Shown here: piece by piece, positions 4,014-20,563 of the stretch
How positions within the stretch are numbered: position 1 is the stretch's first letter
How the letters are laid out: each line of letters opens with the position of its first letter
DNA from: Kaistia sp.
Lineage (GTDB): Bacteria > Pseudomonadota > Alphaproteobacteria > Rhizobiales > Kaistiaceae
Assembly: GCA_965227845.1 (NCBI GenBank)
Contig: OZ245770.1
Location: 2,715,017 to 2,779,016, forward strand
Reading direction: 5' to 3'
DNA length: 64,000 nt
Made by a program: the position numbers and the translations under genes
The notes under the pieces: generated by a model
What the model was told of the DNA's origin: nothing
What the model saw: the letters and a program-made list of their open reading frames with translations, nothing else
The model's database searches: none

Positions 4014-4625
4014 ATGGGTGCACGTGGCAGGCCGCGCGGGTTCGACCGCGACGCCGCCCTTGAACAGGCGATGGACGTCTTCTGGGCGCGCGGTTATGCC
4101 GGCGCCTCGATCGCGGAATTGACCGAGGCGATGGGCATCAACCCGCCCAGCCTCTATGCCGCGTTCGGCTCCAAGGAAGAGCTGTTCAAGGAAGCCGTCC
4201 GCCTGTACGCGGCAACCGACGATGCCTGCACGCTGGCGATGCTCGAAGGCGATCTCTCGACGCGCGACTCGATCGCCGCAATGCTCCAGGCGAGCGCGCG
4301 CTCCTGCGCGATGCCGGGCAAGCCGAGCGGCTGCTTCATGATGCTCGGCGCCACCAATGGCGGCCCGGAGAGCGAGGCAGCGAAGGATTTTCTCTGCGAC
4401 CGCCGTCGCGACATGACGGCCCGCATTCGCGCCCGGCTCGCCCGCGGCATTGCCGACGGTGAATTGCCGCCTGGACTGGACCTCGGCCGCGTCACCGCCT
4501 TCTTTGCCACCGTCATCAAGGGCATGTCGATCGAGGCGCGCGACGGCGCCGACATCGAGACGCTCGCCGCCGTCGCCCGCAGCGCGATGCTCGGCTGGGA
4601 CGCGATCACCTCGACACAGGGCTGA
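4014..4625 (+). CDS. TetR/AcrR family transcriptional regulator
   Basis: GRPRGFDRDAALEQAMDVFWARGY...GINPPSLYAAFGSKEELF HTH. Confidence 0.93.
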   Translation: MGARGRPRGFDRDAALEQAMDVFWARGYAGASIAELTEAMGINPPSLYAAFGSKEELFKEAVRLYAATDDACTLAMLEGDLSTRDSIAAMLQASARSCAMPGKPSGCFMMLGATNGGPESEAAKDFLCDRRRDMTARIRARLARGIADGELPPGLDLGRVTAFFATVIKGMSIEARDGADIETLAAVARSAMLGWDAITSTQG

Positions 4626-9041: not shown

Positions 9042-9149
9042 CGCCCATCTTTGCTCTCCGTCAATCGGCGGTTGGCGATTCCCGCTAGGGTGCGCGCGAT
9101 CGGGCGGCCGAGGCCGGCTCCGATCGCGTCCGAGCTTTGCGAGGAATTC

Positions 9150-9221
9150 ATGCCGTTCGAGCAGCCGCCTTTCTTTGTGATCGCGGCCCGGCCTGGCGCG
9201 ACGGCGGAGGCACCGCGGTGA
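9150..9221 (+). CDS. Putative 23-aa Pro-rich leader peptide upstream of mgtA (MPFEQPPFFVIAARPGATAEAPR)
   Basis: GAGGA SD at 9141-9145, ATG at 9150, 5 Pro including a PP pair, stop TGA overlaps the mgtA start (GTGATG). Confidence 0.45.
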   Translation: MPFEQPPFFVIAARPGATAEAPR

Positions 9222-11794
9222 TGGGGCATCAGGACCGGCCGCCGGCGCGCAGGAGCCGAGGCGCCGCACCGCGGGCCCAGCCGGCCTTCTGGACAGAGAC
9301 CGACGACGCGCTGCTCGCGCGGCTGCAGAGCCGGCAGGCGGGCCTCACCTCGGCCGAGGCCGGCGAGCGCCTTGCGAGGATCGGGCCGAACACCGCCGTC
9401 ATCGGCGGGCGGCATGGCTTCCTCGCCCGTCTCGCCAAGCGCCTCACCGAGCCGCTGGTCGCCATCCTCCTGATCGCCGCCACGATCTCCGGACTTACCG
9501 GCGACTGGCAGAGCTTCGTCATCATCCTCGTCATCGTCCTGTTCTCGATCGGGCTCGACATGGTGCAGGAACGCCAGGCCCGCACGACGATCGAGGCGCT
9601 GAAGCGTTCGGTCGCGGTGTCGGCATCGGTCCGCCGCGACGGCGTCACACACGAATTGCCCGTGCACGAGATCGTCCCGGGCGACATCGTCGATCTGAAG
9701 GCTGGCGAACTCGTCCCAGCCGACGGCGTCGTTCTCGCCGCCGCGGCGGCCGAGGCCAACGAGGCGGTGCTGACGGGCGAGCCCTATCGCGTCGAGAAGC
9801 GGCCGGGCCCGTCTGGCTCCACCGCGCTCTCCGGCGCCTTCAACGCCCTGATCGGCGGCACGTCCCTGGTCGGCGGCACCGCCGTCATGCTCGTCGTCGC
9901 CACCGGCAGTGCCACGCGCTTCGGCGCCATCTCGGCCGCGGTCCAGGAACTCGAGCCGCCGGGCGCCTTCGAGCGCGGCGTGCACGCCTTGGGCATGCTG
10001 ATCCTGCGGCTGACCGGATTCCTGGTGCTGTTCGTGTTGCTGACGCAGCTCCTTCGCAACGGGCTGACGCTCGAGGGCTTCCTATTCGCCGTTGCGCTCG
10101 CCGTCGGGCTGACGCCCGAATTGCTGCCGATGGTGATGACCGTGACTCTGGCGCGCGGCGCCGAGCGGATGGCGGCGCGCAAGGTGGTGGTGAAGCGGCT
10201 GTCGGCGATCCACGATCTCGGCGCGATGGACGTGCTCTGCACCGACAAGACGGGCACGCTGACCGAAGCGCGGATCGCCCATGTCGGCAGCTTCGGCATC
10301 GAGGGCGGCGATAGCGCGCGCGTGACGGCCCTCGCCCGGCTCAACAGCCGCTTTGCCGGCGGCGTCGGCAACAGCCTCGACGAGGCGCTTCTCGACGGTG
10401 CGACGGATCGGGCCGAGGGCTGGATCCATCTGGACGACCTGCCCTTCGACTTCGAGCGCCGGCTGGCCTCGGTGCTGCTCGGCCATGACGGCGCGGCCAC
10501 CATGATCACCAAGGGCGCGCCGGAGGCGCTGCTCGCACGGTGCACCCAGGCCGAGGCGGCGGACGGGAGCCTCGTTCCCCTCGATTCCGCGCTGCGCGCC
10601 CGCATCGAGGCGGCGATCGAGGCCAAGGGACGCGAAGGCTTCCGGTTGCTCGGCGTCGGCTGGCGGACGATGGAACCCGCCTGCCAGACGATCGCGACGA
10701 GCGATGAGGCGGACCTCGTCTTTGCCGGCTGCACGGTCTTCCTCGATCCGCCCAAGCCGTCGGCCGGCGCGGCGGTGACCCGGCTCATCGCGGCGGGCGT
10801 CCGCGTCAAGATCATCTCCGGCGACGGCGCCGCCGTCGTCAGCCATCTCGTGGAGACACTCGCCCTGCCGGCGCATGGCCTCATGACCGGCGAGGAGATT
10901 GCCGCCCTGAAGGACGACGCCCTGGCGCTGCGCGTCGTCGACACGGATCTGTTCGTGCGCGTCTCGCCGGACCAGAAGAGTCGCATCGTGCGGGCCCTGC
11001 GCCGCCGTGGCCATACGGTCGGCTTCATCGGCGACGGCATCAACGACGCGCCGGCAATCCATGCCGCCGATGTCGGGCTCTCGGTCGAAGGGGGCGCCGA
11101 TGTCGCGCGCGAGGCGGCCGACATCATCCTGCTCGCCCCCGATCTCGGCGTTCTTGCCGACGGCGTCGCCGAGGGGCGGCGGACCTATGCCAACATCATG
11201 AAATACATCCGCATGGGTACCAGCTCCAATTTCGGCAACATGCTGTCGATGGCGCTGGCCTCGCTCGTCTTGCCGTTCCTGCCGCTCGCGCCGCTGCAGA
11301 TCCTGCTCAACAACCTCATCTATGACGTCTCGGAAATCGGCATTCCGTTCGACAGCGCCGACAAGGAACAGCTCGCGACCCCGCAATCCTGGGACATGCG
11401 CCAGGTCCTTCGCTTCACGCTGGTGATGGGGCCGCTGTCCTCGCTGTTCGACCTCGCCACCTTCGCCATGCTGCATTGGGGCTTCCATGCCGATGTCGCG
11501 ACTTTCCGCACGGCCTGGTTCGTCGAGTCGATCGCGACGCAGATCCTCGTCATCTTCATCATCCGCACCGCCAAGCCGCTCTGGCTCAGCCGGCCGCATC
11601 CGATCCTGATCGCGACCTCGCTTGGCGCGCTCGCGGTCGCCCTGGTGCTGGCGCTGACCCCGCTCGGCGCGATCGTCGGCTTCGTCGCGCTGCCGGGACC
11701 GATCCTCGCCAGCATTGCCGCCGTCTCGCTCGGCTATCTCGCCATGGCCGAGATGCTGAAGCGCTATGCCGTGCCGCGGGTTGCTCAGGCCTGA
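9221..11794 (+). CDS. mgtA: Magnesium-translocating P-type ATPase (type IIIB)
   Basis: GLTPELLP, LCTDKTGTLT phosphorylation motif, TKGAPE, GDGINDAPA, NFGNMLS. GGAGG SD at 9206-9210; start is GTG 9218 or ATG 9221. Confidence 0.9.
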   Translation: MGHQDRPPARRSRGAAPRAQPAFWTETDDALLARLQSRQAGLTSAEAGERLARIGPNTAVIGGRHGFLARLAKRLTEPLVAILLIAATISGLTGDWQSFVIILVIVLFSIGLDMVQERQARTTIEALKRSVAVSASVRRDGVTHELPVHEIVPGDIVDLKAGELVPADGVVLAAAAAEANEAVLTGEPYRVEKRPGPSGSTALSGAFNALIGGTSLVGGTAVMLVVATGSATRFGAISAAVQELEPPGAFERGVHALGMLILRLTGFLVLFVLLTQLLRNGLTLEGFLFAVALAVGLTPELLPMVMTVTLARGAERMAARKVVVKRLSAIHDLGAMDVLCTDKTGTLTEARIAHVGSFGIEGGDSARVTALARLNSRFAGGVGNSLDEALLDGATDRAEGWIHLDDLPFDFERRLASVLLGHDGAATMITKGAPEALLARCTQAEAADGSLVPLDSALRARIEAAIEAKGREGFRLLGVGWRTMEPACQTIATSDEADLVFAGCTVFLDPPKPSAGAAVTRLIAAGVRVKIISGDGAAVVSHLVETLALPAHGLMTGEEIAALKDDALALRVVDTDLFVRVSPDQKSRIVRALRRRGHTVGFIGDGINDAPAIHAADVGLSVEGGADVAREAADIILLAPDLGVLADGVAEGRRTYANIMKYIRMGTSSNFGNMLSMALASLVLPFLPLAPLQILLNNLIYDVSEIGIPFDSADKEQLATPQSWDMRQVLRFTLVMGPLSSLFDLATFAMLHWGFHADVATFRTAWFVESIATQILVIFIIRTAKPLWLSRPHPILIATSLGALAVALVLALTPLGAIVGFVALPGPILASIAAVSLGYLAMAEMLKRYAVPRVAQA

Positions 11795-11883
11795 TCCCCA
11801 TGCGTCCGCCGTCGCGCGGTGCGAAAGCAGGCTGACGGACCTCCCGCGCCGATGCTATGGATTCGGCGAAGGGAACTGCGGGC

Positions 11884-12285
11884 ATGGCGAAGCGCATAGC
11901 GAGGAGAGCACGGAGCGAGGCGGCGCTGTTCGTCGCGCTGATGCTCGTCGTCCAGGCGCTGCTGAGCGGCCTGTCGCTCGGCCTCGGTGCCGCATCCTCC
12001 GACGGCATCTGGCAGATCGATGCCAGCGGCCTCATCATCTGTACCCGCGACGGCGGCACCGCAACGGCACCCGGCGAGCCGGGCACGGCACATCACGGCT
12101 CCACCGATTGCTGCACCCTCGGCTGCAGCATGGTTGGCGCACTCACCCCCGACCTGCCGCGCGAACCCGCCATCTATCCGCAACCCTCGCGCAGCCTCGG
12201 CGTCAGCCTGGCGAGGATCGTTGATCCCCAGCGACAGGTCGGCCACACGCCGCAGAACCCGCGCGCGCCGCCGATCCTCGCCTGA
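11884..12285 (+). CDS. DUF2946-like membrane-anchored uORF with Cys motif and C-terminal RAPP (CruR-like)
   Basis: N-terminal TM segment, IICTRDG, HHGSTDCCTLGC, ends NPRAPPILA*; sits directly upstream of a PepSY-TM gene. Start may be 11857 or 11884. Confidence 0.75.
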   Translation: MAKRIARRARSEAALFVALMLVVQALLSGLSLGLGAASSDGIWQIDASGLIICTRDGGTATAPGEPGTAHHGSTDCCTLGCSMVGALTPDLPREPAIYPQPSRSLGVSLARIVDPQRQVGHTPQNPRAPPILA

Positions 12286-12437
12286 CGACCGGCCCTCGGG
12301 CCATCCCGATCCCTTCACAGCGCCCTGCCGCGGTCCCGCGCGCAACCGGCCGTGCTCGAGCCGCTCTCTGCGGCCCTGCCGGCCATGCCGCGCGCCGCCG
12401 GGCGCTCGCCCCCACCTCGTTCGAGCCTTTTTCGCCC

Positions 12438-13823
12438 ATGACCAAGTCAGACCCTTCGGCCGCGCCTGCGGTCAACCCGTTCTATTTCGCCGCCTGGCGC
12501 TGGCACTTCTATGCCGGGCTCTTCGTCATCCCTTTCCTCGTGATGCTCGCTTTGACCGGCGCCGTCATGATGATCTACTCGGGCGTCGGCAACGAGCTCG
12601 GCCAAGCGCCGAACGTCACCCCGAGCGGCCAGGCGCTGCCCGTATCGGCGCAGGCCCGTGCAGCGGCCGCGGCCGTGCCCGGCGGCATGCTCACCACCTA
12701 TATCGCACCTGAATCGGCCACGCGTCCGGCCTTCTTCGAACTCAGCAAGGACGGCGCCTCCTTCGCGGTCTCGATCGATCCCTATACCGGCAAAGTGCTG
12801 GGCGCGACCGACGAGGCCACGACGATCCGGGCGCTCGCCGAGAAGATCCACGGCACCCTGCTGATCGGGACCGCCGGCGACCGGCTGATCGAAGCGGCGG
12901 CGTCACTGACCCTTCTCCTGATCGCGACCGGGCTCTATCTCTGGTGGCCGCGCCGGTCCGGCCTCGCTGCGGCGTTCGTGCCGAAGCTGGCCGCACGGGG
13001 ACGCGGTTTCTGGAAGGAACTGCACAAGACGACGGGTATCTGGATCGCCGGCTTCCTGACGCTGTTCATGCTGTCGGGCCTCGCCTGGACCGGCATCTGG
13101 GGCGACAGCTTCGTCAAGCCGTGGTCGTCTTTCCCGGCCGAGAAATGGGACAATGTCCCGCTGTCGGATTTGACCCATGCCTCGCTGAACCACTCGCCGC
13201 TGCATGAGGTGCCGTGGGGACTGGAACTGACGCGCCTGCCGGCCTCCGGCTCCAGCGCGGGAACGCCGGCCGTGCCGCAGCCGGTCGTGCTCGATACGGT
13301 CGCGCAATGGGCGGCGGCGAACGGTTTCAAAGGCCAGTACAAGCTCGCTCTGCCGATGAGCGAAACCGGCGTCTATTCGGTGTCTGTCGATGCGCGCAAT
13401 GGCGACGGCTTCACGCCTTCGGACGACCGCTTCGTCCATATCGACCAGTATACTGGCAACATCCTCGCCGATATCCGCTACGCCGACTACAAGCCGGTCG
13501 CAAAGCTGATGGCCTGGGGCATCGGACTGCACAAGGGCATGGCCGGGACGTGGAACTTCGTGTTCAACCTCGTCTATATCGCGCTGGTGCTGCTGCTCTG
13601 CGTCTCGGGAGTCGTCATGTGGTGGAAGCGCCGTCCGGCGGGCGCCTTCCGGCTCGCCGCACCGCCGATGCCGCGCGACCTGCCGCTCTGGCGCGGCGCC
13701 ATCCTGACCGGGCTGGTCATCGCCCTCGCCTTCCCGATGGCGGGCGTGGTGCTCATCTGCGTCCTCGCGGCCGATCTCCTGGTGATCACGCGCGTACCGG
13801 CGCTAAAGCGCGCCTTCTCCTGA
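12438..13823 (+). CDS. PepSY-associated TM helix domain protein
   Basis: WRWHFYAGLFVIPFL, IHGTLL, TGLYLWWPR, ELHKTTG, LHKG, SGVVMWWKRRP. Confidence 0.9.
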   Translation: MTKSDPSAAPAVNPFYFAAWRWHFYAGLFVIPFLVMLALTGAVMMIYSGVGNELGQAPNVTPSGQALPVSAQARAAAAAVPGGMLTTYIAPESATRPAFFELSKDGASFAVSIDPYTGKVLGATDEATTIRALAEKIHGTLLIGTAGDRLIEAAASLTLLLIATGLYLWWPRRSGLAAAFVPKLAARGRGFWKELHKTTGIWIAGFLTLFMLSGLAWTGIWGDSFVKPWSSFPAEKWDNVPLSDLTHASLNHSPLHEVPWGLELTRLPASGSSAGTPAVPQPVVLDTVAQWAAANGFKGQYKLALPMSETGVYSVSVDARNGDGFTPSDDRFVHIDQYTGNILADIRYADYKPVAKLMAWGIGLHKGMAGTWNFVFNLVYIALVLLLCVSGVVMWWKRRPAGAFRLAAPPMPRDLPLWRGAILTGLVIALAFPMAGVVLICVLAADLLVITRVPALKRAFS

Positions 13824-13843
13824 GAAGCGGCCGGTCACGACAT

Positions 13844-13884
13844 CGGAGTCCGGCTGTCGGCGCTTGACAGCCGGGCTCCGTTTC
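13844..13884 (+). terminator. Intrinsic terminator after the PepSY-TM gene
   Basis: cggagtccggctgtc-ggcgctt-gacagccgggctccg stem followed by tttcgt. Confidence 0.65.
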
Positions 13885-13962
13885 GTGCCTCGCCATTCAG
13901 GTGCGCGGTCGCGCGCCGGGATTTAACGCCGCATGGTGCTTGCATCGGCGGCGTGAGGCGAC

Positions 13963-15279
13963 ATGTTGCAGCCGGGCGTGCAGGCGGGAGACGGGACGAT
14001 TCAGGCGCGGGACATCACCAACAAGAAGAACCTGCTGCTGCTCGTCCAGCTGCGCTGGCTGGCCGTCATCGGGCAGGTGGTGACGATCCTCTATGTCCAT
14101 CTCAGGCTCGGCATCGACCTGCCGCTGCCGGCGATGGCGGCCGTGCTCGCCTTCCTCGTCGCGCTCAACCTCTTGACGCTGCTCCGGCAATATCGCCGCG
14201 AGGCGATCTCCAATTCCGAGATCTTCCTCGAACTGATGATCGATGTCGGCGCGCTGACGCTGCAGCTCTATCTCAGCGGCGGCGCGGCGAACCCGTTCGT
14301 CTCGCTCTACCTGCTGCAGGTCATTCTCGGTGCGGTGCTGCTCGACGCATGGTCGGCCTGGCTGCTGGTCGTCGGGACCAGCGGCTGCTTCGTGTTCCTG
14401 ACGCTCGCCTATCGGCCGCTGGTGCTGCCGCGCAGCGACGGCGCAGCGCTGCTCTCGCTGCATATCCAGGGCATGTTCATCTGTTATGTCCTCGCCGCCT
14501 CGCTGCTGATGGTTTTCGTGACGCGCATCCAGCGCAACCTCAAGGCCCGCGACGCCCATCTCGCCGAACTACGGCAGCGCTCGGTCGAGGAGGACCATAT
14601 CGTCCGCATGGGCCTGCTCGCCTCCGGAGCGGCACATGAACTCGGAACGCCGCTCTCGACGCTCTCCGTCATCCTCAGCGACTGGCAGCGCATGCCGGCC
14701 TTCGCGGCGGACGGCGAGATTTCCGGCGAGATCGCCGAAATGCAGTCGCAGCTCGATCGCTGCAAGGCGATCGTCTCGGGCATCCTGATCTCCTCCGGCG
14801 ATGCACGCGGCGAGGGCACGATCCGCACGACGGCGGCGCGGTTCATGGACGATACGCTGGCCGAATGGCAGGCGAGCCGGTCGCCGCCTTCGATCGACTA
14901 CAGCAACCTGATTGAGCCGGACGCGGCGATCGTCTCCGATACCGCGCTTAAGCAGGTGATCTTCAACATCCTCGACAATGCGCTCGAAGCCTCGCCCGGC
15001 TGGGTCGGCGTCGTCGCCGGGCGGCAGGGCGACATGATCGTCATCGCCGTCAGCGACGCCGGCCGCGGCTTCGAGGAGGGCATGCTGGCAACCTTCGGCA
15101 AGCCCTATCGATCGAGCAAGAACCGTCCGGGCGGCGGGCTCGGCCTCTTCCTCGTCGTCAATGTCGTGCGGAAGCTCGGCGGAACCGTCACCGCGGAGAA
15201 CGGGATCGACGGCGGCGCCTGCGTCACCCTGATCCTGCCGCTCGAATCGCTGGCCACGGGAGACGATCATGGACACTGA
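13963..15279 (+). CDS. regB: RegB/PrrB/ActS-family redox sensor histidine kinase
   Basis: LVQLRWLAV, GGAANPF quinone-binding motif (GGxxNPF), AHELGTPL H-box, DRCKAI redox Cys, GGLGLFLV. Confidence 0.8.
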   Translation: MLQPGVQAGDGTIQARDITNKKNLLLLVQLRWLAVIGQVVTILYVHLRLGIDLPLPAMAAVLAFLVALNLLTLLRQYRREAISNSEIFLELMIDVGALTLQLYLSGGAANPFVSLYLLQVILGAVLLDAWSAWLLVVGTSGCFVFLTLAYRPLVLPRSDGAALLSLHIQGMFICYVLAASLLMVFVTRIQRNLKARDAHLAELRQRSVEEDHIVRMGLLASGAAHELGTPLSTLSVILSDWQRMPAFAADGEISGEIAEMQSQLDRCKAIVSGILISSGDARGEGTIRTTAARFMDDTLAEWQASRSPPSIDYSNLIEPDAAIVSDTALKQVIFNILDNALEASPGWVGVVAGRQGDMIVIAVSDAGRGFEEGMLATFGKPYRSSKNRPGGGLGLFLVVNVVRKLGGTVTAENGIDGGACVTLILPLESLATGDDHGH

Positions 15280-15802
15280 CCGGCCGCTGCTGATCGTCGA
15301 GGACGACGAGGTGTTCGCCCGCGCGCTTCGTCGCTCGCTGGAGCGGCGCGGCTTTGGTGTCCACCTCGCCGACGGCCTCGACAGCATGCGCGCCGTGCTC
15401 GCCACCATCTCGCCCGGCTATGCGGTGGTCGACCTCAAGCTCGGCAGCGGCTCGGGGCTCGACTGCGTCGCGCTGCTGCATGCGCATGATCCGGCGATGC
15501 GGATCGTCGTCCTCACCGGCTTTGCCAGCATCGCCACCGCCGTCGAGGCGATCAAGCTCGGCGCCTGCCACTACCTGCCGAAGCCCTCCAACACCAACGA
15601 CATCGTGGCCGCCTTCGAGCGCGCCGAAGGCGACACCTCGGTCGCGCTGACGCAGCGGCCGACCTCGATCAAGAATCTCGAATGGGAGCGCATCCACGAG
15701 ACGCTGGCCGAGACCGGATTCAACATCTCGGAGACCGCGCGCCGGCTCGGCATGCACCGCCGCACGCTGGCGCGCAAGCTCGAGAAGGCGCGCGTGAAAT
15801 AG
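15269..15802 (+). CDS. regA: RegA/PrrA/ActR-family response regulator
   Basis: Receiver domain (VEDD, VDLKL, LTGFASIATAVEAIKLGA) plus LEWERI...NISETARRLGMHRRTL HTH. Confidence 0.85.
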   Translation: MDTDRPLLIVEDDEVFARALRRSLERRGFGVHLADGLDSMRAVLATISPGYAVVDLKLGSGSGLDCVALLHAHDPAMRIVVLTGFASIATAVEAIKLGACHYLPKPSNTNDIVAAFERAEGDTSVALTQRPTSIKNLEWERIHETLAETGFNISETARRLGMHRRTLARKLEKARVK

Positions 15803-17320: not shown

Positions 17321-17339
17321 ACCAAGATTGGTCCGCATC

Positions 17340-18527
17340 GTGAGCCGATTCCGTAGTCTTTTCTTCCTGCCGGCGGCACTGCTGCTGGGCGGCTGCAACA
17401 TCGTGGTCCTGTCGCCGGCTGGCGACGTCGCCGCACAGCAGCGCGACCTGATCGTCATCTCGACGGTGCTCATGCTGCTGGTGATCCTGCCGGTGATGGC
17501 GCTGACAATCCTGTTCGCCTGGCGCTACCGCACCGCCAACAAGGCCGCCACCTACGAGCCCGACTGGGATCATTCGACCCAGCTCGAACTCGTCATCTGG
17601 GCCGCGCCGCTGCTGATCATCATCTGCCTCGGCGCCGTCACCTGGATGGGCACGCATCTCCTCGATCCCTACCGGCCGCTCGACCGCCTCGCCAGCGACC
17701 GCCCGGTGACCGGCGCGATGCAGCTGCTTCGGGTCGAGGTGGTGGCGCTCGATTGGAAGTGGCTGTTCATCTACCCCGATTACGGCATCGCCAGCGTCAA
17801 CGAACTGGCCGCGCCGGTCGACCGGCCGATCGAGTTCAGCATCACATCGTCGGCGGTGATGAATTCGTTCTTCATCCCGGCGCTCGCCGGCCAGATCTAC
17901 GCCATGCCCGGCATGCAGACCAAGCTGCATGCCGTCATCAACCAGCCGGGCCGCTATGAGGGCTTTTCGGCCAATTACAGCGGTGCCGGCTTCTCGCAGA
18001 TGCGGTTCGCCTTCCACGGCGTCGACGAGGCCGGGTTCGAGAGCTGGATCGATGACGCCCGCAAGAGCGAGGGTGGGCTCGACCGCACGGCCTATCTGAC
18101 GCTGGAGCAGCCGAGCGAGAACGTGCCGCCGCAGCGCTTCGCCTCGGTCGATCCCGATCTCTACCGCCGCATCCTCAATCGCTGCGTCGAGCCCGGCAAG
18201 ATGTGCATGAGCGAGATGATGGCGATCGATGCCAAGGGCGGCCTCGGCATGGCCGGCATCGATAACGTGATGCCGCTGCTCTACGACAAGTACAATCGCC
18301 GTGGCACCGTGCTCGGGCCGGCTCCAGCCTATGTGCAGAGCATCTGCACGCCGGAAGGGGCCGCCGCGATGCTGGCGAGCCGGCCGCTGCCGGTTTCTCT
18401 GCCGGCCGGCAGCCCGCTCTACGGCTCCGGCCTTTCTCTGCCCGGAACCGCGATCCCCGGCTTCAGCAGGGCGCTCGCCCCTTCCCTCACCCTCCTGACC
18501 GGCGAAAGCCGGCCGTCGAACTCATGA
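17340..18527 (+). CDS. cyoA: Cytochrome bo3 ubiquinol oxidase subunit II with C-terminal extension
   Basis: Lipobox [53 protein letters not shown]. Start TTG 17328 or GTG 17340. Confidence 0.93.
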
Positions 18528-20563
18528 GCACCGCTTCCATGAGCGCCGCCCCCCTGTCCGAAACTTCCCCCGTCGTCCATGCCCTGTTCGGCCGCTTGAC
18601 GCTCGACCAGTTGCCGCTGCACGAACCGATCGTCGTCGGCACCTTCGTCGTCGTCGCGGCCGTCGGCCTCGCCGTCCTCGCCGCCATCACCTATTTCAAG
18701 CTCTGGGGCTATCTCTGGCGCGAGTGGTTCACGAGCGTCGACCACAAGCGCATCGGCATCATGTACATGGTGCTCGGCATCATCATGCTGCTGCGGGGCT
18801 TCGCCGACGCGATCATGATGCGCCTGCAGCAGTCGCTCGCCTTCAATGGCAGCGAAGGCTATCTCAACGCCCATCACTACGACCAGATCTTCACCGCCCA
18901 TGGCGTGATCATGATCTTCTTCGTGGCGATGCCGCTCGTCACCGGCCTCATGAACTTCGTTGTGCCGCTGCAGATCGGCGCGCGCGACGTCTCGTTCCCG
19001 TTCCTCAATAATTTCAGCTTCTGGATGACCGCCGCCGGCGCCGTCATCGTGATGATGTCGCTGTTCATCGGCGAGTTCGCCCGCACCGGCTGGCTCGCCT
19101 ATCCGCCGCTGTCCAATATCGGCTACAGCCCGGATGTCGGCGTCGACTACTATATCTGGGCGCTGCAGGTGGCCGGCGTCGGGACGCTGCTGTCCGGCGT
19201 CAACCTCATCTGCACCATCGTCAAGATGCGCGCCCCCGGCATGACGATGATGAAGATGCCGGTCTTCACCTGGACCGCACTCTGCACCAACGTGCTCATC
19301 GTCGCCGCCTTCCCCGTGCTCACGGCTGTGCTGGCGCTGCTCTCGCTCGACCGCTATGTCGGCACCAACTTCTTCACGAACGACTTCGGCGGCAACCCGA
19401 TGATGTACGTGAACCTGATCTGGATCTGGGGCCATCCCGAGGTCTACATCCTGATCCTTCCCGTCTTCGGTATCTTCTCGGAGGTGGTGTCGACCTTTTC
19501 CGGCAAGCGACTCTTCGGCTATACGTCGATGGTCTATGCCACGGTCGTGATCACCGTTCTCTCCTACCTCGTCTGGCTGCATCACTTCTTCACGATGGGC
19601 TCCGGCGCCAGCGTCAACTCGTTCTTCGGCATCACGACGATGATCATCTCGATCCCGACGGGCGCGAAGATGTTCAACTGGCTGTTCACGATGTATCGCG
19701 GCCGCATCCGCTTCGAGCTGCCGATGATGTGGACGATGGCCTTCATGCTGACCTTCGTCATCGGCGGCATGACCGGCGTGCTGCTCGCCGTGCCGCCGGC
19801 CGACTTCGTGCTGCACAACTCGCTGTTCCTCGTCGCCCACTTCCACAATGTCATCATCGGCGGCGTGCTGTTCGGCCTCTTCGCCGGCATCAACTACTGG
19901 TTCCCGAAGGCGTTCGGCTTCACGCTCGACAAGTTCTGGGGCAAGCTGTCGTTCTGGTTCTGGGTCGTCGGCTTCTACTTCGCCTTCATGCCGCTCTATG
20001 TGCTCGGCCTGATGGGCGTCACGCGGCGGCTTCGCGTCTTCGAGGATCCCTCACTGCAGATCTGGTTCGTGATCGCGGCCTTCGGCGCCGCCCTGATCGC
20101 GCTCGGCATCCTGTTCTTCATTGTCCAGATCGCCGTCAGCATCAAGAACCGCGCCCGCCTCGTCGACGTCACCGGCGATCCCTGGAACGGCCGCACGCTC
20201 GAATGGGCGACGTCCTCGCCGCCGCCGGACTACAACTTCGCGTTCACGCCGGTCGTGCATGACAACGACGCCTGGTGGGACATGAAGAACCGCGGCTATG
20301 AGCGCCCGCTCGGCGGGTTCAAGCCGATCCTGATGCCGCGCAATACCGGCGCCGGCATCATGCTCGCCGGGCTCAGCATCGCGCTCGCCTTCGGTCTCAT
20401 CTGGTACATCTGGTGGCTGGCCGCCGTGAGCTTCGTCGGCCTCCTGGCGGTGGCGATCGGCCATACCTTCAACTATGCCCGCGACTTCCGGATTCCGGCC
20501 GAGACGATCCTCGCAACCGAGACGACGCGGACCCGCCTCCTCGCCGGCAAGGTGACGACATGA
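18524..20563 (+). CDS. cyoB: Cytochrome bo3 ubiquinol oxidase subunit I
   Basis: [53 protein letters not shown]. Confidence 0.97.

Follow-up and report, generated by a model that had tools for sequence, protein, structure and literature searches.

The closest described systems are two leader peptides, CruR of Bordetella pertussis and CutF of Rhodobacter capsulatus. CruR (Bp2923) heads the cruR-crtA(bfrG)-crpH operon, whose Rho-utilisation (rut) region has been mapped to a bubble of C over G excess (C>G bubble) extending from the unstructured 3' part of cruR to within the 162-nt intergenic region; Rho dependence was proven with bicyclomycin and by in vitro transcription (Roy et al. 2022, PMC9426467). 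Arrest of the ribosome at the RAPP motif of CruR has been seen by toeprinting in vitro, with Pro codons in the P and A sites (PMC12992588). Roy et al. also listed genes for ScoC, PCuAC, YcnI and CopC with long intergenic distances (PMC9426467), and the copper-starvation-induced operon for cytochrome oxidase biogenesis in Bradyrhizobium japonicum, pcuABCDE, is likewise headed by a cruR homologue (cited in PMC9426467). Kaistia is missing from the part of their Table S1 that names many Hyphomicrobiales. Here, a 64,000-nt stretch of a Kaistia sp. genome (contig OZ245770.1; 'the window') is described, in which the open reading frame (ORF) at 11884-12285 is probably a CruR-type leader peptide tying expression of the downstream PepSY_TM gene to copper supply.

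CutF belongs to a wider set of 5,334 CutF-like proteins, which fall into 29 clusters with distinct Cys/His motifs and have TonB-like and PCuAC-like genes among their commonest neighbours; CutF itself, from the cutFOG locus, carries a CxxxC motif with a 45-residue spacing (Ozturk et al. 2023, PMC9973294). The CutF arrest is prolonged by copper, which is sensed within the periplasmic vestibule of SecY (bioRxiv 10.1101/2025.02.05.636593). The cargo of such leaders has also received attention: the cruR operon encodes a PepSY_TM protein, CrpH (Bp2921), that supports heme-copper oxidases without depending on the TonB receptor, and the bo-type quinol oxidase of the same copper locus has been named as its likely client (Hachmi et al. 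2026, PMC13038864).

An earlier note on the window had proposed that a RAPP-terminated, DUF2946-like upstream open reading frame (uORF) and the C-rich spacer behind it form a copper-sensing attenuator for a PepSY-TM gene. The features on which this proposal turns are as follows.

11884-12285, forward strand: leader ORF, 133 aa; DUF2946 leader peptide of the CruR/CutF type, CCxxGC subfamily
11869-11875, forward strand: Shine-Dalgarno (SD)-like AAGGGAA, 8 nt 5' of the ATG at 11884, from direct reading of the sequence
11920-11994, forward strand: N-terminal transmembrane (TM) or export segment, assigned by hydropathy, with a family-invariant Gln (LVVQ)
12109-12126, forward strand: CCTLGC Cys motif, a putative metal sensor (C85, C86 and C90)
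12262-12273, forward strand: RAPP arrest motif, CGC GCG CCG CCG, residues 136-139
12286-12437, forward strand: C-rich spacer, 152 nt (C 75, G 43, T 23, A 11)
about 11960-12530, forward strand: C>G bubble, a candidate Rho-utilisation region, continuous in a 78-nt sliding window
12438-13823, forward strand: PepSY_TM protein, CrpH-like cargo, 461 aa (PF03929 197.6 bits, PepSY 40.5 bits)
11832-11862, forward strand: putative promoter-like block CTGACG-N16-GCTATG(GA), overlapping the ATG at 11857 and common to two Kaistia relatives

Residues are numbered from the ATG at 11857, the start of the longest frame. The anatomy reported in the earlier note is all present on direct reading. The leader has a basic N-terminus followed by the hydrophobic stretch AALFVALMLVVQALLSGLSLGLGAA, for which the maximum 19-residue hydropathy is 2.31. 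The Cys of the ICT motif is C62, the two His residues preceding the DCCTLGC sequence are residues 79-80, and RAPP is followed by ILA and then by a TGA stop codon at 12283-12285. C90 and R136 are separated by exactly 45 residues (91-135).

Both the direct reading of the region and the ORF listing give a forward frame of 142 aa at 11857-12285. The frame is real, while its translation most likely begins at the ATG at 11884: the ATG at 11857 overlaps the promoter-like block that is conserved before the orthologous leaders of two Kaistia assemblies, and the later start has the AAGGGAA sequence before it and gives a 133-aa product matching a protein already in the databases. An alignment of upstream regions shows that the relatives have GGGAGAG or GGAGGAGG at the SD-like position.

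The correspondence with CruR is extensive. The two leaders share membership of DUF2946, an N-terminal export or TM segment, a semi-conserved upstream Cys, a metal-type Cys motif exactly 45 residues before RAPP and an arrest motif that ends three residues from the C-terminus. Beyond the peptide, a long intergenic region comes next in both (162 nt in B. pertussis and 152 nt in the window), with a C>G bubble running into it from the 3' part of the uORF; both have PepSY_TM cargo, and in both the 'copper locus' includes a cyoABCD quinol oxidase close by. They differ in that CruR has a CXXC motif whereas the window leader has CCxxxC; in the absence of a TonB-dependent transporter from the window operon and from beside any leader of this genome; in the conservation of a TM segment that is dispensable in CruR; and in the host, which is alphaproteobacterial (Kaistia-like), with a Pfam score that just reaches the cut-off. 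In place of the CXXC of CruR, the window leader has Thr at the first CXXC position, and its last Cys matches C93 of Bp2923 by spacing.

The Cys motif itself is of the CutF type, comprising a C86-TLG-C90 core 45 residues before RAPP. CutF also resembles the window leader in being a DUF2946-like peptide of an alphaproteobacterium, in placing CxxxC 45 residues from a C-terminal proline arrest motif, and in having an exported N-terminus that is likely to matter. By contrast, CutF arrests at PPP in an EF-P-dependent manner, and a short stem-loop hides the SD sequence of cutO; copper induces the arrest, thereby switching on a detoxifying multicopper oxidase. The window leader has RAPP, its spacer is long, C-rich and unstructured, and its cargo is of the acquisition or maturation type; the PPP motif, the short SD-masking stem-loop and the detoxification cargo are all absent from the leader locus. 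A C-terminal R-A-P-P motif acting in the peptidyl-transferase centre is shared as well with arrest peptides of the ApdA/ApdP/SecM type (RAPP/RAGP), which differ in monitoring export through Sec or YidC, in regulating the translation of localisation factors, and in having neither metal sensing nor a Cys motif.

Membership of DUF2946 was assessed with the Pfam hidden Markov model. The leader matches PF11162 over profile positions 4-117 of 117 with a score of 23.8 bits, where the gathering cut-off is 23.7; NCBIfam has no family matching either the leader or the PepSY_TM protein. A word-indexed search recovered 16 homologues, in which CC..GC and N-P-R-A-P-P followed by three residues are invariant, and the stretches between the motifs are poorly conserved. 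When a leader profile was run against 1.84 billion representatives, 1167 clusters were matched at E<=1e-3 and 428 at E<=1e-10. CCxxxC (including CCxxxCC) occurs in 147 of the 163 family sequences examined and RAPP in 154, with a tail of exactly three residues in 135; across the same sequences the spacing between the last Cys and the Arg of RAPP is 45-47 residues. Four features are near-invariant in an alignment of 148 representatives: the Gln of the TM segment, the upstream Cys, CC..GC and RAPP. The LVVQ Gln within the TM helix, conserved in at least 90% of these cluster representatives, is unusual for a mere export signal. On account of these cluster counts and this motif conservation, the CCxxxC form is a large and coherent subfamily. 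The variant motif noted earlier is thus present as CCTLGC, with the CxxxC core of CutF, and is no peculiarity of this locus.

Of 201 genomes sampled from the order, 28 have the subfamily, and they represent 17 of 111 genera. Within the genome to which the window belongs, which is GC-rich, 62,134 open frames reach 40 aa or more, and 110 of these have R[AG]PP, followed by 0-6 residues, at the C-terminal end. Just three of these 110 contain a strongly hydrophobic segment, and two of the three are the window leader and a paralogue. The paralogous leader (C1:1636149-1637770; 10150-11770 of locus L007) reads DCCTLGC...SRAPPAA, scores 24.0 bits against DUF2946 and lies 80 nt upstream of genes for PCuAC (132 bits) and SCO1/SenC (162 bits). 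As the two leaders precede separate gene sets, one genome uses leader copies for separate oxidase-copper modules. A third match to DUF2946, at C1:1630919, was discarded as spurious, being situated in the His-rich loop of a cation-diffusion-facilitator-like ORF. In a sister genome (G116), three leader copies are present.

The composition of the spacer was counted by hand in the earlier note, and its length of 152 nt and counts of 75 C and 43 G are exact. An excess of C over G of at least 32 per 152 nt is found in 0.14% of windows of this size in the 64-kb stretch and in 0.037% of those genome-wide (4.85 Mb), where it marks 187 distinct regions on either strand. The bubble proves to be wider than the spacer. 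One maximum, at 12130-12200, falls in the 3' part of the leader, which is Pro-rich, and the other, at 12260-12450, begins at RAPP and takes in the entire spacer, an arrangement comparable to that of B. pertussis, where rut lies in the 3' part of the uORF and not in the intergenic region alone. The same skew is evident across 29 family loci, with the caveat that these are phylogenetically related and the counts therefore non-independent: the mean C-over-G excess is +8.5% for the leader's 3' third and +8.6% for the 80 nt past its stop, each being positive at 26 of the 29 loci; for the cargo coding sequence the mean is -1.2%, with 8 of the 29 positive. A rho gene is present in the genome.

The spacer folds no better than shuffled sequence (z = -0.54), because of which a riboswitch or a specific SD-masking stem was rejected as the main device. 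In both the minimum free energy (MFE) and centroid folds, the region from Pro139 to the stop codon pairs with codons 4-8 of the PepSY_TM gene, a long-range pairing that is not clearly conserved in the closest relative (L008, from a Kaistia sp. metagenome-assembled genome (MAG), OZ245859.1). A small hairpin 5-12 nt past the leader stop recurs at most of the 29 loci and was also dropped as a feature, its stability being unremarkable both against mononucleotide shuffles (mean z -0.92; -0.09 for the window's own) and against neighbouring sequence, since a median of 36% of the other 43-nt windows of the same loci fold at least as well. In agreement with the earlier note, no AGGAG-like SD sequence precedes the ATG of the PepSY_TM gene at 12438. 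None is present before the corresponding start in L008 either; a third Kaistia locus, L009, has GGGAGG at this position.

The L008 spacer contains an insertion. Directly after the leader stop, at 4403-4565, is a near-perfect palindrome of 155 nt with a folding energy of -108.6 kcal/mol; the window's genome has two copies, about 80% identical, at C1:1261851 and C1:3065406. The element has the appearance of a small mobile palindromic repeat, and its insertion spares the C-rich 3' part of the spacer.

Upstream of the leader, the promoter-like block consists of CTGACG at 11832-11837, 16 intervening nucleotides and GCTATG at 11854-11859, and the TGAC and CCGATGCTAT blocks are invariant when the upstream regions of the window, L008 and L009 are aligned. 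The genes upstream of the leaders in L008 and L009 differ from those in the window and the block is nevertheless kept; from this alignment it is likely to be a dedicated leader promoter. A scan of 11600-14100 with an E. coli-type consensus detected no sigma-70-type promoter and no intrinsic terminator, including within the spacer. The gene immediately upstream encodes an MgtA-like P-type ATPase, the end of which is 90 nt from the ATG at 11884 with no terminator detected between the two. Co-transcription with this ATPase was considered as the normal source of the leader transcript and rejected, because the ATPase is not syntenic, mgtA being found upstream of the leader in none of the relatives compared, and because the promoter-like block is conserved.

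The sole cargo of the window leader is the PepSY_TM protein. Five orthologues, down to 45% identity, all retain its membrane His residues H23, H138, H196 and H365, which form the di-heme pattern of FoxB-type reductases and CrpH (PMC13038864). A search by sequence for relatives of solved structure returned one weak match to a PepSY domain and did not retrieve FoxB. By analogy, this CrpH-like di-heme protein is probably a periplasmic reductase of metal (copper) that feeds heme-copper oxidases, such as that encoded by cyoABCD. It resembles CrpH in being a PepSY_TM protein with four membrane His residues, in having a CruR-type leader upstream and in belonging to a genome with heme-copper oxidases; it differs from CrpH in being the only leader cargo and in being followed by a RegB/RegA-like two-component system. 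The suggestion that the PepSY_TM protein takes part in a copper route is correct in substance and is not new, as such a role is already reported in the literature (PMC9426467, PMC13038864). The observations that accompanied it also stand: neither leader of the window's genome adjoins a TonB-dependent receptor, and genes for a heme-copper oxidase, cyoA and cyoB, are nearby at 17328-20563.

The gene orders found at the family loci are as follows.

Window, L008/L016, L009, L045: PepSY_TM directly after the leader, then regB/regA wherever the sequence extends that far
L010 (Kaistia dalseonensis), L015: leader-PCuAC-Sco1-PepSY_TM, one operon
L018, L027: leader-PCuAC-PepSY_TM
L019, L025, L042: leader-PCuAC-Sco1
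L020-L023, L028, L031: leader-PCuAC-YcnI-CopCD (the sequences of L022, L028 and L031 end before CopCD)
L011, L012, L024, L026, L029, L030, L044: leader-YcnI-CopCD

These orders imply that every identified cargo of the subfamily is a gene for copper acquisition or cuproenzyme maturation, which fits expression that is on when copper is scarce. The arrangement in L020-L023 and L031, in which PCuAC, YcnI and CopCD-type genes follow the leader, recalls pcuABCDE of B. japonicum, a member of the same order, Hyphomicrobiales, from which the window locus differs in its cargo. Kaistia genomes have two or three leader copies, before PepSY_TM, PCuAC-Sco1 and YcnI-CopCD, and the related loci of named genomes put the host of the window within Kaistia or beside it.

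Identity of the PepSY_TM protein to that of the window is 93% in L008/L016, 88% in L009, 83% in L010, 74% in L045 and 45% in L015, a Hyphomicrobiales MAG. Divergence is much quicker in the leader than in its cargo, with identities of 73, 49 and 48% set against 93, 88 and 83%, as is expected where nothing but the motifs and their spacing is important. Three species, K. dalseonensis, K. terrae and K. defluvii, share a clearly homologous leader and 78-nt spacer although the cargo differs, being PCuAC-Sco1-PepSY_TM or YcnI-CopCD; the leader cassette consequently looks modular, and from these comparisons the leader and spacer together appear to have been exchanged between the cargo sets of sister species. 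In L010, L011 and L012 this 78-nt spacer (4364-4441) contains two stems, CCGGCTC/GAGCCGG and CCACCC/GGGTGG, whose loops vary.

Sequence comparison supports the earlier proposal of a CruR-type attenuator before the PepSY-TM gene through the DUF2946 match, the geometry shared with Bp2923, the C>G bubble and the copper-type cargo of relatives. The CruR mechanism is the best supported because of this geometry (45 residues, and RAPP plus three), the bubble, the unstructured spacer and the presence of a rho gene. Transcription would start at a dedicated promoter just 5' of the leader, and the lead ribosome would translate the leader as far as RAPP and arrest there, the P and A sites being occupied by the two Pro codons. 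It would then be positioned on the end of a long tract, rich in C and poor in G, that begins in the leader's 3' third and spans the 152-nt spacer. At low copper the arrest would persist and Rho would be unable to load or to catch the polymerase, such that the PepSY_TM gene would be transcribed and then translated by de novo initiation. Binding of copper to the nascent CCxxxC motif, 45 residues behind the arrest point, would relieve the arrest; the ribosome would complete the last three codons and depart, and Rho would terminate transcription in the spacer.

Several observations weigh against this scheme. The Cys motif is CxxxC with an extra Cys rather than the CXXC of CruR, and matches that of CutF, in which copper induces arrest. 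The TM segment, with its invariant Gln, is conserved, whereas the export signal of CruR is dispensable; this implies that, as in CutF, copper may be sensed in the periplasm or at the translocon. The Pfam score exceeds the cut-off by only 0.1 bit, and a C>G skew hints at a rut site without being proof of one. Finally, the closest relative tolerates a 155-nt palindrome right after the leader stop, from which it follows either that the immediate post-stop sequence is not critical or that regulation is different in L008. One way of accommodating the motif and the TM segment, which we advance tentatively and consider doubtful, is that the CCxxGC subfamily is a hybrid. Its CutF-like CxxxC and TM helix would sense periplasmic copper at the translocon, its CruR-like RAPP would arrest the ribosome within a Rho attenuator, and the leader copies would form a regulon that lacks a transcription factor and coordinates copper for the respiratory oxidases.

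The main rival to a CruR-type attenuator is a translational on-switch like that of CutF, in which copper bound to CxxxC in the periplasmic vestibule of SecYEG prolongs the arrest, and the RNA opens to make the PepSY_TM start accessible. CutF has exactly the CxxxC core and 45-residue spacing of the window leader (PMC9973294), whose TM segment is strongly conserved, the PepSY_TM gene lacks an SD sequence, and the pairing of the Pro139-to-stop region with codons 4-8 would provide the structure to be opened. This reading is nonetheless unlikely: that pairing is not clearly conserved in L008 and the spacer folds no better than shuffles, the 152 nt of the spacer bear little resemblance to the short stem-loop between cutF and cutO, the arrest motif is RAPP plus three, as in CruR, where CutF has PPP, the C>G bubble recurs across the family, and the cargo here, like all of the syntenic cargo (PCuAC, Sco1, YcnI-CopCD), serves acquisition or maturation and not detoxification. 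Another reading takes the 133-aa product to be a working membrane-anchored or periplasmic copper-binding protein, for instance a chaperone passing Cu to the PepSY_TM protein, with the RAPP tail and spacer having no regulatory role. Conservation of the TM Gln, the ICT Cys and CC..GC would be in keeping with this, and CutF was itself originally conjectured to be a chaperone (PMC9426467). Yet the region between the Cys motif and RAPP is variable in sequence and fixed in length, which is what a tunnel-spanning spacer, and not a fold, typically shows; RAPP never varies and its distance from the stop codon is constant; varied cargo always has the leader in front of it; and neither the CruR nor the CutF protein can be detected in vivo (PMC9426467, PMC9973294). 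There is accordingly little probability that the product acts as a protein in its own right.

The same stalling attenuator might instead respond to another thiophilic metal, or to the redox state of CCxxxC through disulfide formation. Such a signal would suit the known PepSY_TM enzymes, which are ferric-siderophore reductases, and the RegB/RegA-like redox two-component system that is next in the locus; the odds are small, given that all other subfamily cargo found consists of dedicated copper proteins (PCuAC, Sco1, YcnI and CopCD) and that the Cys-rich clusters of the family are tied to Cu genes (PMC9973294). The remaining alternative is a chance open frame in GC-rich DNA followed by an ordinary intergenic sequence that happens to be C-rich. 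The 110 frames of this genome that end in R[AG]PP by chance and the borderline Pfam score are what such a reading would predict, although it has almost nothing left to recommend it, being already contradicted by the conservation of specific motifs across hundreds of clusters and in 28 of the 201 genomes sampled from the order, and by the conserved synteny with copper genes.

The genes surrounding the leader and its cargo are listed below.

9137-11794: MgtA-like P-type ATPase, with Cation_ATPase_N, E1-E2 and Cation_ATPase_C domains
13963-15802: sensor kinase (6-TM histidine kinase) and response regulator with receiver and Fis-type helix-turn-helix domains, overlapping by 11 nt
17328-20563: cyoA (COX2 and COX_ARM) and cyoB (COX1), from Pfam matches
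Reverse strand: major facilitator superfamily transporter of the neighbourhood

The kinase and regulator are directly 3' of the PepSY_TM gene, an order that is kept in L008 and L009, and we take the pair to resemble RegB/RegA (ActS/ActR). The reg locus of Rhodobacter includes SenC, a Sco1 homologue, and a tie between redox signalling and the supply of copper to oxidases may be recurring at the window locus. The cyoABCD quinol oxidase genes lie 3.5 kb downstream of the PepSY_TM gene.

The leader in the window is a further example of the CruR/CutF family, and both the family and this interpretation of it are already published; it opens no new question. It represents a clean alphaproteobacterial case, lacking a TonB receptor, with a CrpH-like PepSY_TM protein as its sole cargo and a bo-type quinol oxidase operon beside it. 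What the window adds is this receptor-less arrangement with a single cargo, typical of Kaistia, and the occurrence of two leaders in one genome. Leaders of the CCxxGC subfamily score at the edge of the Pfam threshold for DUF2946, and are hence easily missed by annotation. The fused PCuAC-Sco1-PepSY_TM operons of relatives, in turn, constitute independent genomic support for a CrpH-type role in the maturation of heme-copper oxidases.

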